The notes beneath the pieces were generated by a model. That model searched no databases and was not told the origin of the DNA. It saw only the letters and a program-made list of their open reading frames with translations. Shown one piece after another: positions 1,133 to 5,786 of a stretch of 6,747 nt of DNA. Each line of letters opens with the position of its first letter. Positions within the stretch are counted from its first letter, which is position 1. The DNA comes from Escherichia coli. GTDB taxonomy: Bacteria; Pseudomonadota; Gammaproteobacteria; Enterobacterales; Enterobacteriaceae. The stretch lies in assembly GCF_050320075.1 (NCBI RefSeq), contig NZ_CP190024.1; one strand, written 5' to 3'. A program made the translations under genes and the position numbers.

Positions 1133-1408
1133 TTAGTGGTTCTGCGGTTTCGCCGGTGGTCTGGGTAGCTTCTCCAGCTCGTTAATCAGCGGTTGTAGTC
1201 GGTTCATATCGGCCTGTCTTGTGACTTCCTTTCGCAGAAACTGGAGCAGGAACGCACGCAGTTGCGCTTCTTCCGGCCTCCGTACCCTCGCCAGCATGGC
1301 AGCCCCCACAATGACTTTTTGCGCCGTGTCCAGGCTCCGGCTCTTCGCCTTCAGGCGCTGTAATCTGGCCTCAGCTTCGGCAATCTTCTGTTCGAGTGTT
1401 CTGCTCAT
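1133..1408 (-). CDS. mobC: MobC-family mobilisation accessory protein (relaxosome component)
   Basis: 91-aa ORF on the minus strand, divergent from the relaxase gene with the putative oriT in between (RSF1010-like arrangement). Charged coiled-coil N-terminus followed by KVIVGAAMLARV, resembling the MobC family. GGAG RBS about 8 nt upstream of the ATG (complement of 1406-1408); stop is the complement of 1133-1135. Confidence 0.72.
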   Translation of the reverse strand: MSRTLEQKIAEAEARLQRLKAKSRSLDTAQKVIVGAAMLARVRRPEEAQLRAFLLQFLRKEVTRQADMNRLQPLINELEKLPRPPAKPQNH

Positions 1409-1494
1409 TTCGTGACTCCGTGCGCGGTGAAAAATCGTATTTTAGCGCGTCACTGGTAGTTGCAAAACTGAACTGGCATAATGCACGGCACATC

Positions 1495-1550
1495 ACGAAG
1501 TGCGCACTTATACAATCTTCACTTCGTTTCGATTGTGTGCGCCCTGCGGG
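1495..1550. promoter_or_regulatory. Candidate oriT (nic region) and divergent mobC/mobA promoter region
   Basis: Intergenic region between divergent mobC and mobA. Inverted repeat CGAAGTG (1495-1501) / CACTTCG (1520-1526), including the perfect 12-bp palindrome AAGTGCGCACTT (1497-1508), followed by GTGTGCGCCCTGCGGGG (1535-1551). This resembles the RSF1010 nic region as I recall it (GGTAAGTGCG^CCCTCCCC), which would put the nick near 1541/1542. Confidence 0.5.
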
Positions 1551-1586
1551 GCTGAAAGAAAACGGCAAAAAGGCATTACGGAAGAA

Positions 1587-3806
1587 ATGGCGATTTATCA
1601 TCTCAGCATGAAAATCATTTCGCGAAAAAACGGCTACAGTGCCGTTGCTTCTGCTGCCTACCGTTCCGGCTCTGTCATACCCGATGACCGTACCGGATTA
1701 ATCCACGATTACACCCGTAAACGCGGCGTTGATGATGCGGTCATTCTCACCCCTGCGAATGCACCGTCCTGGTGTGGTGACCGTTCCGTTCTCTGGAATG
1801 CGGTCGAGAAAGCCGAACAGCGCCGGAACTCCCAGCTGGCAAGGGAGATTGAACTCGCCATTCCCCGTGAGATTTCCCGCGAGGCCGCACGGGAGGCCGT
1901 TCTCGCTTTTGTCCGGGAAAACTTTGTCAGTCGGGGCATGATTGCCGATGTGGCGTTCCATCATATGGACCGGACCAACCCCCATGCACACATCATGCTG
2001 ACCACGAGAGCTGTCGGGGAAACGGGATTCGCAGGAAAGGTCAGGGACTGGAACGACCGGGCACTCGCCGAGACGTGGCGCGCATCATGGGCTGACCATG
2101 CGAACAGAGCGCTTGCGAACGCCGGCTACCAGGAAGAGATAGACCATCGTTCATACGAGCGTCAGGGACTGGAGAAAGCGCCGGGCCTTCACCTCGGAAA
2201 GGCTGCCTGTGCGATGGAAAAACGGGGCATGGAAACAGAACGCGGTGAGCAGAACCGCCTGATTAACAGCCTTAACCTGGAAATACAGGTTTCCCGCACA
2301 AGGCTGGCAGTCATCCAGGTACAGGAGAACGTGCGGAAACGGGAACTCAGCGATGCCGCACGTCGTGCAGCGGAAGCCCTTAATCTGACCATTCCCGCCG
2401 CGAATGCCTCAGCGGATACCCTGCGGGAATTCATTGCCACACTGCCGCAGGAATGCGGGAACGCATGGGAGATGACACCGGAGTTCGTGGCGATGAACGG
2501 GAAGGCAAACGACATCAAACGTGAGGGGAATGCGCTGGTGAAAGAGCGGGATATTCTCGAAAAAGAGATGACCGGACTCAGAAAATCCCGTCCGGTAGCG
2601 TCCATCCTGTCAGAGCTTCCCCTGATGACATGGGCTGAACCGGAATACCGCAAAAGACAACTCCGCTTCTGGAAACTCGAGAAACAGATTGAATCTCTTC
2701 TCCGCACCTACAGGGCCGTGAAAGAACGGGACATTCCCGCCCGTCGTCAGGCCTTTGAAACGCAGTGGAATACGTGGATTTCGCCGGGAATGGCAGAGCT
2801 GAAAGAAAAACTGTCAGCACGGGAAGCGGAGCGGCGCAGGGAGGAAGCCGAAGCGGAAGCGCGCCGGAAGGAACAGGAATATGACGCACGGCTGAAACAC
2901 CATGATAACCATCGCCTGAGCCGTGAAACGGCATTAGCCGGGGTTATTACGGAGCTGGGGCGTGCCAGAGAGCCGGGAACGGGCAGGATAACCCGCTACA
3001 TGATGCTGAGTAACAGAGCCGGAGAATTCACGGTATGGGGTGATGAGCTGGCGCATTACCCCCAGAGTGTTCATGACCCGGTGAATGTTTACCTGTCGCC
3101 AGGCGGGGCTGTGATGGTCTCGGATATACGTGAGAGAATGCCAGAATCTCATGAGACGATGGCGCGGCCTGAGCGTGTGAGAATGTATTCCGGTGCGACG
3201 GTCCGGCATGTACTGGAACAGATGCGCCAGGGGTGGCCCTCTTACGGTTTTCCGGCGCTGCCGCATCACTGGCCGGATAATTTTTATTTCAGCGACGACC
3301 GCAGGCCCGCAGCCTCTCCGCTGCCGTCAGCGCACCGGGTGGACGTCACCGCTTATGCGGCACCGGAGCAACTCATGCCCGTTGTCTTTTCGACAGAGCG
3401 AAACAGCAGGACGCTGAATCTGCTGTTGTGCGAAGGGCCGGAGGAAATGCTTGTCGGTTTTGTGCGCCTGGAGGACGAGCTGCGTCCCGTTCTTGCGCTT
3501 CCGTCGCCGGATTACAGTCATCTGATGGTAAGCATCATCACAGAGAACGGGATACACCTGGCAGGTTACGGTGAGGCCATAAACCGTGATGCTGATACTC
3601 CGTACCCACCGGAACCGAAGCTGATGCAGTTCAGGCTTAAGGGCTGTCAGGACACGCTTTTTGCTGCCATCAACAAACCGGAAGAGATGCCGGATTATCT
3701 CTTCCGTCAACTCGGATTTAATCAGACCTGGCATGAGTGGAAGCGGGAGGAACAGCGCAGGCAACAACAACGCCGTCCCGGGCACTTCCGGGGCATGAGT
3801 ATGTGA
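1587..3806 (+). CDS. mobA: MobA/MobL-family (MobQ) conjugative relaxase with a long C-terminal extension
   Basis: The ORF track starts at a GTG at 1500, but the in-frame ATG at 1587 gives the N-terminus MAIYHLSMKIISRKNGYSAVASAAYRSGS, typical of MobA relaxases (RSF1010 MobA starts MAIYHL) and placing the catalytic Tyr near the N-terminus. Histidine triad HHMDRTNPHAHIML. Stop TGA at 3804-3806. Residues from about 250 to 740 include a charged coiled-coil stretch and a C-terminal region I cannot assign to a domain by eye. Confidence 0.9.
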   Translation: MAIYHLSMKIISRKNGYSAVASAAYRSGSVIPDDRTGLIHDYTRKRGVDDAVILTPANAPSWCGDRSVLWNAVEKAEQRRNSQLAREIELAIPREISREAAREAVLAFVRENFVSRGMIADVAFHHMDRTNPHAHIMLTTRAVGETGFAGKVRDWNDRALAETWRASWADHANRALANAGYQEEIDHRSYERQGLEKAPGLHLGKAACAMEKRGMETERGEQNRLINSLNLEIQVSRTRLAVIQVQENVRKRELSDAARRAAEALNLTIPAANASADTLREFIATLPQECGNAWEMTPEFVAMNGKANDIKREGNALVKERDILEKEMTGLRKSRPVASILSELPLMTWAEPEYRKRQLRFWKLEKQIESLLRTYRAVKERDIPARRQAFETQWNTWISPGMAELKEKLSAREAERRREEAEAEARRKEQEYDARLKHHDNHRLSRETALAGVITELGRAREPGTGRITRYMMLSNRAGEFTVWGDELAHYPQSVHDPVNVYLSPGGAVMVSDIRERMPESHETMARPERVRMYSGATVRHVLEQMRQGWPSYGFPALPHHWPDNFYFSDDRRPAASPLPSAHRVDVTAYAAPEQLMPVVFSTERNSRTLNLLLCEGPEEMLVGFVRLEDELRPVLALPSPDYSHLMVSIITENGIHLAGYGEAINRDADTPYPPEPKLMQFRLKGCQDTLFAAINKPEEMPDYLFRQLGFNQTWHEWKREEQRRQQQRRPGHFRGMSM

Positions 3807-4037: not shown

Positions 4038-5786
4038 ATGAGCGGTGGAGATGGACGCGGCCATAACACGGGCGCGCATAGCACAAGTGGTAACATTAAT
4101 GGTGGCCCGACCGGGATTGGTGTAAGTGGTGGTGCTTCTGATGGTTCAGGATGGAGTTCGGAAAATAACCCGTGGGGTGGTGGTTCCGGTAGCGGCATTC
4201 ACTGGGGAGGTGGCTCCGGTCGTGGTAATGGCGGGGGTAATGGCAATTCCGGTGGTGGCTCGGGAACAGGCGGTAATTTGTCAGCAGTAGCTGCGCCAGT
4301 GGCATTTGGTTTTCCGGCGCTTTCCACTCCAGGAGCTGGCGGTCTGGCTGTCAGTATTTCTGCAAGCGAATTATCGGCAGCTATTGCTGGTATTATTGCT
4401 AAATTAAAAAAAGTAAATCTTAAATTCACTCCTTTTGGGGTTGTCTTATCTTCATTAATTCCGTCGGAAATAGCGAAAGATGACCCCAATATGATGTCAA
4501 AGATTGTGACGTCATTACCCGCAGATGATATTACTGAATCACCTGTCAGTTCATTACCTCTCGATAAGGCAACAGTAAACGTAAATGTTCGTGTTGTTGA
4601 TGATGTAAAAGACGAACGACAGAATATTTCGGTTGTTTCAGGTGTTCCGATGAGTGTTCCGGTGGTTGATGCAAAACCTACCGAACGTCCAGGTGTTTTT
4701 ACGGCATCAATTCCAGGTGCACCTGTTCTGAATATTTCAGTTAATAACAGTACGCCAGCAGTACAGACATTAAGCCCAGGTGTTACAAATAATACTGATA
4801 AGGATGTTCGCCCGGCAGGATTTACTCAGGGTGGTAATACCAGGGATGCAGTTATTCGATTCCCGAAGGACAGCGGTCATAATGCCGTATATGTTTCAGT
4901 GAGTGATGTTCTTAGTCCTGACCAGGTAAAACAACGTCAGGATGAAGAAAATCGCCGTCAGCAGGAATGGGATGCTACGCATCCGGTTGAAGCGGCTGAG
5001 CGAAATTATGAACGCGCGCGTGCAGAGCTGAATCAGGCAAATGAAGATGTTGCCAGAAATCAGGAGCGACAGGCTAAAGCTGTTCAGGTTTATAATTCGC
5101 GTAAAAGCGAACTTGATGCAGCGAATAAAACTCTTGCTGATGCAATAGCTGAAATAAAACAATTTAATCGATTTGCCCATGACCCAATGGCTGGCGGTCA
5201 CAGAATGTGGCAAATGGCCGGGCTTAAAGCTCAGCGGGCGCAGACGGATGTAAATAATAAGCAGGCTGCATTTGATGCTGCTGCAAAAGAGAAGTCAGAT
5301 GCTGATGCTGCATTAAGTGCCGCGCAGGAGCGCCGCAAACAGAAGGAAAATAAAGAAAAGGACGCTAAGGATAAATTAGATAAGGAGAGTAAACGGAATA
5401 AGCCAGGGAAGGCGACAGGTAAAGGTAAACCAGTTGGTGATAAATGGCTGGATGATGCAGGTAAAGATTCAGGAGCGCCAATTCCAGATCGCATTGCTGA
5501 TAAGTTGCGTGATAAAGAATTTAAAAACTTCGACGATTTTCGGAGAAAATTCTGGGAAGAAGTGTCGAAAGATCCTGAGTTAAGTAAGCAATTTAATCCA
5601 GGTAATAAAAAACGCTTGAGCCAAGGATTAGCTCCACGGGCTAGGAATAAAGATACTGTCGGTGGGCGTCGCTCATTTGAGCTTCATCACGACAAGCCAA
5701 TCAGTCAGGATGGTGGTGTTTATGATATGGACAACCTCCGTATCACTACGCCGAAACGCCATATTGATATTCACAGAGGTCAGTAA
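4038..5786 (+). CDS. col: E-group DNase colicin (BtuB/Tol-dependent, HNH nuclease C-terminus), most consistent with colicin E8-type
   Basis: 582-aa ORF with RBS GAGGG at 4026-4030. Glycine-rich N-terminal translocation domain containing the TolB box DGSGW (residues 35-39). Central coiled-coil region of the kind that forms the receptor-binding domain. C-terminal HNH/beta-beta-alpha-Me motif [34 protein letters not shown], diagnostic of the DNase colicins E2/E7/E8/E9. Subtype inferred from the adjacent immunity gene. Confidence 0.93.

Follow-up and report, generated by a model that had tools for sequence, protein, structure and literature searches.

Introduction

The MOBQ4 relaxase family was defined by Garcillan-Barcia et al. 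2019 (PMC6856555; preprint 10.1101/726927), and its MOBQ42 branch consists of ColE2-like colicin plasmids, with ColE9-J as an example (PMC6856555). A 178-bp fragment of a ColE9-J-like plasmid was cloned and mobilised in matings with R64drd11, which defined it as the origin of transfer (oriT), and the two parts of this fragment (1-70 and 71-178 in the paper's own numbering) were each non-functional alone (PMC6856555). The MOBQ4 relaxase gave 500-1000 times better transfer in cis than in trans, and mobC was dispensable, its deletion costing 0.6-1.5 log of transfer (PMC6856555). The best helper for MOBQ4 was the IncI1 plasmid R64drd11, and the IncL/M plasmid pCTX-M3 and RP4 also worked; transconjugants were obtained inefficiently with R751 and R6Kdrd1, and F, R27, R388, pKM101 and pOLA52 did not work as helpers (PMC6856555). 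No nick site for MOBQ4 is named in the main text or the preprint of that study. An earlier classification, quoted in PMC3832669, had put ColE2-P9 among the MOBQ modules, and the nick consensus of the MOBQ family is quoted in the same paper as NWACCNNTAAGTGCGCCCTYNN.

Relaxase nick sites lie 3' of a hairpin, and the MobA protein of RSF1010 contacts only the base of the hairpin, for which a 6-bp stem suffices (PMC4814116). The RSF1010 oriT overlaps the promoters P1-P3, which are repressed by MobA and MobC (PMC2200642). In addition, oriT mimics that have the same core but different hairpins have been described on relaxase-less plasmids (PMC4993578).

A ColE2-type colicin plasmid with a MOBQ4 mobilisation module

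The window, i.e. the whole stretch of 6,747 bp that was analysed, is a complete circular plasmid of the ColE2-like colicin type. The same sequence is found in E. coli pACN001-D (NC_023325.1) and in three more records (100% identity), and its identity to ColE9-J across the entire plasmid is 96%. Genes for a MobQ-family relaxase, colicin E9, immunity, lysis, a replication initiator and one 'hypothetical protein' are annotated on it; an oriT feature is absent from both the RefSeq and the PLSDB annotation, and a search of the whole plasmid against Rfam gave no family match. The part of the plasmid that concerns us here contains the following features.

1133-1408, minus strand: mobC, encoding a 91-aa RSF1010-type relaxase accessory protein and transcribed away from oriT.
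1409-1586: the mobC-mobA intergenic region of 178 bp, equivalent of the experimentally defined MOBQ4 oriT fragment.
1587-3806, plus strand: mobA, encoding a 739-aa MOBQ4 relaxase (Pfam MobA_MobL, PF03389, 2.2e-70; NCBIfam MobQ, 6.6e-78).

The translation of mobA carries Y25, E87, E89, H125, H133 and H135, the residues listed in PMC6856555, and its first 250 amino acids are 84% identical to MOBQ41 relaxases. The 91-aa reading frame had no Pfam or NCBIfam match and is the one labelled 'hypothetical protein' by RefSeq. We identify it as MobC because in a pairwise comparison it was 35% identical to the RSF1010-type MobC over 66 amino acids (E 8e-7), and because it is 84% identical to a protein on a MOBQ41 plasmid that carries the RefSeq name 'relaxase accessory protein MobC'. 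The sole nested reading frame that was scanned (3193-3417) gave no Pfam or NCBIfam match, and mobB is not annotated. The replication initiator matched Pfam Replicase (7.9e-44) and PriCT_1 (5.4e-5) and is of the ColE2 type, and the combination of a ColE2-like initiator (PF03090 and PF08708) with a colicin operon, characteristic of MOBQ42, is present. So is a divergent mobC separated from mobA by 178 bp, and the plasmid belongs to the published MOBQ42 group of ColE2-like colicin plasmids with a MOBQ4 relaxase. A preliminary description of the region, made from the letters and their reading frames, had named the two genes mobC and mobA and spoken of a MobQ-type module on a ColE2-type colicin plasmid. 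Both gene labels were correct, and the relaxase profiles, the MobC homology and the ColE2-type Rep support the description of the module.

The interval 1409-1586 is the exact gap from the start of mobC to the ATG of mobA at 1587. Across these 178 bp the window differs from ColE9-J by 12 substitutions, all of them in the mobC-proximal 80 bp (1409-1488), and the stretch 1489-1586 is identical between the two plasmids. The proposal that this interval is the oriT is borne out by the published matings with the equivalent fragment (PMC6856555) and by this identity. The oriT call is thus correct but already established for the plasmid family. IncQ plasmids are mobilisable themselves and supply no mating apparatus. 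Of the helpers that had been suggested in the preliminary description, IncP and 'IncQ-helper systems', the former agrees with the result for RP4 (PMC6856555) and the latter was wrong, IncQ plasmids not being helpers.

The motif shapes are not beyond chance expectation

The motifs to which attention had been drawn in the interval were all found, the larger inverted repeat being one of 8 bp.

1498-1509: perfect 12-bp palindrome AAGTGCGCACTT.
1535-1551, plus strand: GTGTGCGCCCTGCGGGG, first described as the nic motif, located by sequence.
1495-1502 and 1520-1527: perfect 8-bp inverted repeat ACGAAGTG and CACTTCGT, an alternative hairpin with a 17-nt loop.

The palindrome had been placed inside this larger repeat; instead, it overlaps the left arm. 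Its complementarity to the nic-like motif is imperfect, at 83% (1496-1507 against 1537-1548). The 9-mer GTGCGCCCT at 1537-1545, which is part of GTGTGCGCCCTGCGGGG, is the sole exact copy in the plasmid.

The number of occurrences of each motif was compared with expectation. The window contains two perfect 12-bp palindromes as compared to a mean of 1.7 in window shuffles, and the rarity of the palindrome was rejected as evidence. With at most one mismatch GTGCGCCCT had four matches where 1.7 were expected, and at least four were seen in 19/200 shuffles. The MOBQ core TAAGTGCGCCCT, with at most two mismatches allowed, had three matches, all within 1497-1545, as compared to 0.56 expected (three were reached in 4/200 shuffles), and under the same mismatch limit no core-like sequence was present in the plasmid outside 1497-1545. 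The shapes alone are not beyond chance, and the signal comes from homology to the MOBQ core. A terminator scan of 1300-1700 gave no terminator; a GCCC/GGGC hairpin at 1541-1552 is not followed by a T run.

The predicted nick core lies on the minus strand at the palindrome

To place the interval among its relatives we compared the regions upstream of mobA homologues in 16 further plasmids (30-84% relaxase identity) and in one RSF1010-type IncQ1 plasmid, with all loci oriented so that mobA was on the plus strand. The RSF1010-type oriT was located with the RSF1010 sequence, which IncQ1 plasmids match at 100%. The nick of RSF1010 has been mapped experimentally, and the strand with the core is directed from mobA to mobC in the RSF1010-type plasmid. 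A layout consisting of a hairpin, 0-3 nt and TAAGTG/CGCCCT (the slash marks the cut) was found in 12 other groups of plasmids with a MobQ relaxase, RSF1010-type and pSK41-like plasmids included, and the same hairpin-core layout was present in four relaxase-less plasmids with only an oriT. Among relatives with a recognised core, the core strand was antisense to the relaxase gene wherever such a gene was present. An exact TAAGTGCGCCCT was found in five of them (Klebsiella pMB2930_2, Lactiplantibacillus, Psychrobacter, a pSK41-like S. aureus plasmid and Agrobacterium pAt3) and a core with one mismatch in Acinetobacter; in these six distant relatives the core was on the minus strand, pointed away from mobA and followed the inverted repeat after 0-1 nt. 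Four loci (L007, L013, L025 and L026) had no recognisable core in the 700 nt upstream and give no information on the layout. Aligned in the same register, the window gives the following elements.

1510-1499, minus strand: predicted nick core TAAGTG/CGCACT (TAAGTGCGCACT), an 11/12 match to the MOBQ core that coincides with the palindrome at 1498-1509.
1512-1517, minus strand: nick-proximal arm of the hairpin, GATTGT, assigned by register comparison and a compensatory change.
1518-1530, minus strand: hairpin loop of 13 nt, GAAACGAAGTGAA, expanded as compared to the 3-nt loop, mostly GAA, of most relatives.
1531-1536, minus strand: nick-distal arm of the hairpin, ACAATC, assigned by register comparison.

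The minus strand of the window thus reads ACAATC, 13-nt loop, GATTGT, A, TAAGTG/CGCACT, in the register shared with the relatives. The core is 77 nt from the start of mobA, a MobA_MobL/MobQ relaxase gene of the kind that neighbours MOBQ-class origins, and both this distance and the 1-nt gap after the hairpin are the same in Klebsiella pMB2930_2. The minus-strand copy has the inverted repeat 5' of the core, and its strand is the antisense one with respect to the relaxase gene. The hairpin formed by these arms is weak, with 6 bp and a 13-nt loop.

The other candidate is the plus-strand copy at 1534-1545, where the preliminary description had placed the nick (GTGTG/CGCCCT, 1539/1540). If this were the nick, the core would have the opposite orientation to mobA from that in RSF1010, and transfer into the recipient would start with mobA. 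GTGCGCCCT matches the core of RSF1010 and pSK41 at 9/9 positions, the plus strand likewise has the inverted repeat just upstream of it, and the MOBQ41, MOBQ42 and pSCU-121-4 plasmids all carry the motif without change. However, the two bases before GTG depart from the conserved TAA, giving 10/12 matches to TAAGTGCGCCCT as compared to 11/12 for the minus-strand copy, and the cut would be only 3 nt from the hairpin, as compared to 6-9 nt in every relative. No relative was found with the core on the sense strand of mobA, and the motif has decayed in plasmids that keep the palindrome block (see below). The plus-strand copy fits worse because of its 10/12 match, the 3-nt gap and a strand that the relatives do not use, and we consider a nick at this position unlikely. 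Over the consensus 3' half CGCCCT, the plus-strand copy is a perfect match and the minus-strand copy has CGCACT.

The expected resemblance to MobQ origins was thus found, but it is the palindrome, in its minus-strand reading, that is homologous to the RSF1010/pSK41 core. As judged from this alignment, the nick is predicted between 1505 and 1504 on the minus strand, inside the palindrome, and the copy and strand chosen in the preliminary description were probably wrong.

The plus-strand motif corresponds to a conserved flank of the hairpin

Read on the minus strand, GTGTGCGCCCTGCGGGG is CCCCGCAGGGCGCAC, which is located directly 5' of the distal hairpin arm and is 8/9 complementary to the nick region. 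A short flank, (C)GCAC, was found at the distal arm also in Klebsiella, Acidiphilium and Psychrobacter, in the pSK41-like plasmid, in pRHB01-C09_4 and in small ColpVC plasmids, and it is complementary to the GTGC(G) at the predicted nick. Folded as DNA, the minus strand formed a two-tier hairpin with an ATAA bulge, in which the flank constitutes the lower stem. The stability of this structure in the window was -11.2 kcal/mol (z -3.8, 0/200 shuffles as stable), and the corresponding values were -14.4 kcal/mol (z -5.5) for pSCU-121-4 and -10.6 kcal/mol for the pSK41-like plasmid. K. oxytoca p3 has a joint change of the base that follows the predicted cut and of the flank base that pairs with it, GTGC becoming GTGG in both copies. 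All relaxase-bearing MOBQ4 plasmids examined, those of MOBQ41 and MOBQ42 as well as pSCU-121-4, have the plus-strand copy in the same form, and a GTGCGC copy is kept even in the distant pRHB01-C09_4. The flank is a real conserved element, with pairing, a second protein site and termination as candidate roles. From the comparison of sequences, the plus-strand copy of GTGCGCCCT is probably the complement of this conserved 5' flank of the hairpin and not the nick. Given its recurrence in distant MOBQ origins, including the pSK41-like one, (C)GCAC may be a general element of MOBQ origins, and we found no description of it in the accessible literature.

The 8-bp repeat ACGAAGTG/CACTTCGT offers another fold, which would put the predicted nick in its 17-nt loop; RSF1010 MobA does cleave substrates with the nick inside the loop in vitro, with reduced yield (PMC4814116). 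The minimum-energy fold of a longer, 76-nt fragment (-13.3 kcal/mol, z -2.2) includes this alternative hairpin. MOBQ41 has a weakened form of it and p12-2388.5 a broken one, in neither case with compensation, and on these grounds it was downgraded as a candidate for the key hairpin. A function for it is doubtful.

The palindrome block is retained on plasmids that lack a relaxase gene

The arms of the hairpin vary between plasmids. They are ACAATC and GATTGT in both MOBQ41 and MOBQ42, and ACAAACTC and GAGTTTGT in pSCU-121-4, where a change from T to A at 1516 is paired with a change from A to T at 1532. The same compensatory change of the pair 1516/1532 (T-A to A-T) was seen in small ColpVC plasmids, and the arms are ACAAAC and GTTTGT in a set of small plasmids. 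In pRHB01-C09_4 the arms are GTTTCTC and GAGAAAC. Its arms are those of RSF1010 and its expanded loop is that of pSCU-121-4, and it therefore links the RSF1010 and MOBQ4 layouts.

The small plasmids, of roughly 1.5-2.6 kb, were found by a sensitive DNA search with 1470-1600 as query, which gave 673 PLSDB matches in total, and match 1493-1560 at 80-87% identity; p11-0230.2 is one of the ColpVC plasmids of 2 kb. Those that have been replicon-typed are ColpVC, and those that have been annotated carry a rep gene only. The palindrome block CACGAAGTGCGCACTTATACAA is unchanged in MOBQ4 plasmids; among five relaxase-less plasmids it is unchanged in three, has one substitution in one and a 3-nt deletion in one. 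By contrast, the plus-strand motif has decayed in all five, reading GTGCGGTCT in four of them and GTGCTATTC in the fifth, and GTGCG is the only part of it that is kept in these oriT-only plasmids. Plasmids that would have to borrow a relaxase have thus kept the palindrome copy almost unchanged, but have not kept the one on the plus strand. The small oriT-only plasmids are putative substrates of MOBQ4 relaxases and may be mobilised by them.

One further element outside the hairpin is retained in the alignment with these plasmids.

1471-1478: AACTGGCA box, kept in relaxase-less oriT-only plasmids.

The box is possibly a binding site for an accessory protein. Since plasmids that have no mob genes keep it, its role may be in the processing of DNA and not in transcription.

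Candidate promoters of the mob genes

Two promoter-like elements were noted between the mob genes.

1439-1466, minus strand: promoter-like site for mobC, TTTGCA, 16 nt, TAAAAT, the single site found in a consensus promoter scan.
1474-1482, plus strand: candidate extended -10 element of a mobA promoter, TGgCATAAT, from direct reading of the sequence.

The -35 hexamer of the mobC site is not conserved in the relatives, positions 1462 and 1463 being different. TGgCATAAT is invariant in four MOBQ4 plasmids and was absent from the output of the consensus promoter scan. The promoters of mobA and mobC probably lie in or beside the stretch with the hairpin and core, and autoregulation by the relaxosome, as had been suggested in the preliminary description, is a plausible analogy with RSF1010 and should be read only as such.

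Discussion

The explanation that we favour, and consider likely, is that the interval is a MOBQ42 oriT with its core on the minus strand, the order being hairpin (ACAATC, 13-nt loop, GATTGT), A and TAAGTG/CGCACT. The steps of transfer can be inferred from homology with the MobA of R1162/RSF1010 and the NES of pSK41. The N-terminal relaxase domain of MobA would bind the base of the hairpin together with the single-stranded ATAAGTG, cut between G1505 and C1504 and stay on the 5' C via Tyr25. MobA would then be exported by the coupling protein and mating apparatus of a helper of the IncI1, IncL/M or RP4 type, and mobC would be the first gene to enter the recipient and mobA the last. MobC would be helpful but not essential. 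The flank is predicted to pair with the nick region so that the two-tier hairpin forms, and binding of the relaxosome may repress the mobA and mobC promoters, as in RSF1010.

A different possibility, which we judge improbable, is that both inverted copies are working relaxase sites, such that either strand can be nicked or that one copy is a second binding or termination site or an operator in the mobA leader. The second copy would then contribute to the cis preference and to autoregulation. Inverted GTGCGC copies do flank one hairpin both in MOBQ4 plasmids and in the distant pRHB01-C09_4, the two copies in K. oxytoca p3 have changed in concert, and the plus-strand copy falls in the 5' leader of mobA if the candidate promoter at 1474-1482 is real; the preference of MOBQ4 relaxases for cis, by a factor of 500-1000, would also suit this possibility. 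However, simple base pairing between the flank and the nick region explains the same co-variation, and most lineages keep only (C)GCAC, whereas a second complete relaxase site would need more than this. Moreover, we know of no MOBQ system that nicks both strands. A more specific form of the idea, which is likewise rather unlikely, is that the MOBQ4 oriT is two-faced and that the plus-strand copy at 1537-1545 in the mobA leader is a real second relaxase site for holding, termination, operator function or a second nick. If this were true, the second site could pair with the true nick in the two-tier hairpin and could underlie the cis preference of MOBQ4 and the dispensability of MobC.

The idea that the palindrome and repeats are mainly transcriptional, as operators or leader-RNA structures of the divergent mob genes, with the processing site elsewhere in the 178 bp, draws on the promoter-like elements nearby (from the scan and from the direct reading at 1474-1482) and on the overlap of promoters and oriT in RSF1010, but is highly improbable given that the block is kept by plasmids with no mob genes to regulate, is strongly homologous to distant MOBQ nick cores in the same position and register, has no other core-like counterpart in the plasmid and lacks an Rfam match.

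E. coli from clinical and farm sources commonly carries small colicin plasmids of the ColE2 type, and their spread depends on the oriT described here and on IncI1, IncL/M or IncP helpers, as already published. The feature belongs to a known family, in which it is nothing out of the ordinary, and the presence of an oriT adds no new biology. What is added is a specific, testable prediction of nick position and strand for the MOBQ4 family, and a caution that a search for the 9-mer GTGCGCCCT by itself probably leads to the wrong copy. The 2-kb relaxase-less plasmids with the same core bear on the question of which plasmids should be counted as mobilisable.

Relation to described MOBQ origins

The closest described system is the MOBQ42 oriT of ColE9-J-like plasmids (PMC6856555), which has the same backbone, 178-bp gap, catalytic residues, ColE2-type Rep and colicin operon as the window. 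The main text of that study delimits the oriT functionally, and the nick and strand predicted here from the alignment are an addition to it. For the 2-kb ColpVC plasmids the parallel is with the relaxase-less oriT mimics of PMC4993578.

The oriT of R1162/RSF1010 (IncQ1, MOBQ1) lies, like that of the window, between divergent mobC and mobA genes with the core strand directed towards mobC, and in both cases a hairpin is followed by TAAGTG/CGC and the MobC proteins are homologous. In RSF1010, however, the inverted repeat is longer, with 7 perfect bp, or 10 bp if one mismatch is included, around a GAA loop of 3 nt, as compared to 6 bp and a 13-nt loop in the window, the sequence after the cut is CGCCCT rather than CGCACT, and there is no GCAC flank beside the hairpin. 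RSF1010 MobA works well in trans and needs MobC, whereas MOBQ4 relaxases prefer cis and mobC is dispensable. With a relaxase identity of only about 31% (measured against an IncQ1 plasmid) and no mobB, the module of the window works like that of RSF1010 but lies outside the IncQ1/MOBQ1 subgroup.

The pSK41-like oriT reads GCGAACG, GAA, CGTTCGC, A, TAAGTG/CGCCCT. With pSK41/pGO1 of staphylococci, where the relaxase is NES, the window has in common the single A spacer, ATAAGTG and a GCAC flank able to pair with the GTGC at the nick. These plasmids differ from the window in being Gram-positive conjugative plasmids with about 35% relaxase identity, in their 3-nt loop and in having no extended inverted copy of the core.

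Relaxase-less plasmids with a related oriT core

Homologues of the MOBQ4 oriT core with 80-87% identity, corresponding to window 1470-1560, were found in five small plasmids without a relaxase gene:

L017: pLAO79
L018: pRHB01-C04_6
L019: p11-0230.2
L020: p12-2388.5
L021: FWSEC0002 unnamed10

The sizes of these plasmids (1.5-2.6 kb) are below the room needed for a relaxase gene, the ColpVC replicon type was assigned to 4/5 of them, and the annotation consists of a rep gene alone in two, a hypothetical protein in one and nothing in the other two. They have the appearance of plasmids with an oriT only, dependent on a relaxase encoded elsewhere. Such borrowing is odd given that the activity of MOBQ4 relaxases in trans was reported to be 500-1000 times below that in cis (PMC6856555). 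A 9-nt tandem duplication of CACGAAGTG, adjoining the predicted nick core at the site corresponding to window 1494-1502, is common to pLAO79 and pVR50F (L022), which are otherwise different plasmids.

The AACTGGCA box at window 1471-1478 was kept in the relaxase-less oriT-only plasmids and the -10-like CATAAT overlapping it was not; an accessory protein may bind to this box. The 70/71 split of the published oriT fragment falls directly after the box if the numbering begins at mobC.

Repeats in and outside the oriT

A short element, (C)GCAC, adjoins the distal hairpin arm on its 5' side and recurs in distant MOBQ oriTs (loci L006, L008, L010, L014 and L024), among them that of a pSK41-like plasmid. 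In the window it lies at:

1537-1545, minus strand: (C)GCAC flank of the hairpin

The flank and the GTGC at the nick can pair, and the resulting hairpin has two tiers and an ATAA bulge.

Across the plasmid as a whole, 22 perfect 8-bp inverted repeats were counted at loop lengths of 3-20 nt, compared with 1.7 in mononucleotide shuffles; the figure of 22 is inflated, as longer repeats contribute overlapping counts. The colicin gene contains the second of the plasmid's perfect 12-bp palindromes (CAGGTGCACCTG, 4714-4725), consistent with chance expectation.

Relation to RSF1010 and IncQ1 plasmids

The RefSeq records of the window plasmid name mobC (1133-1408) a hypothetical protein, and the Pfam and NCBIfam models gave no match to it. 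Its homology to RSF1010 MobC is nevertheless clear, as is that to the MOBQ41 protein to which RefSeq gives the name MobC.

The plasmid pRHB01-C09_4 (L024), whose MobA is only 30% identical, has its oriT elements about 30-90 nt upstream of mobA. Its hairpin arms, GTTTCTC/GAGAAAC, are RSF1010-like and it also has the expanded loop GACGAAGGA of pSCU-121-4 and an inverted GTGCGC copy, a combination that links the IncQ1 and MOBQ4 oriT layouts.
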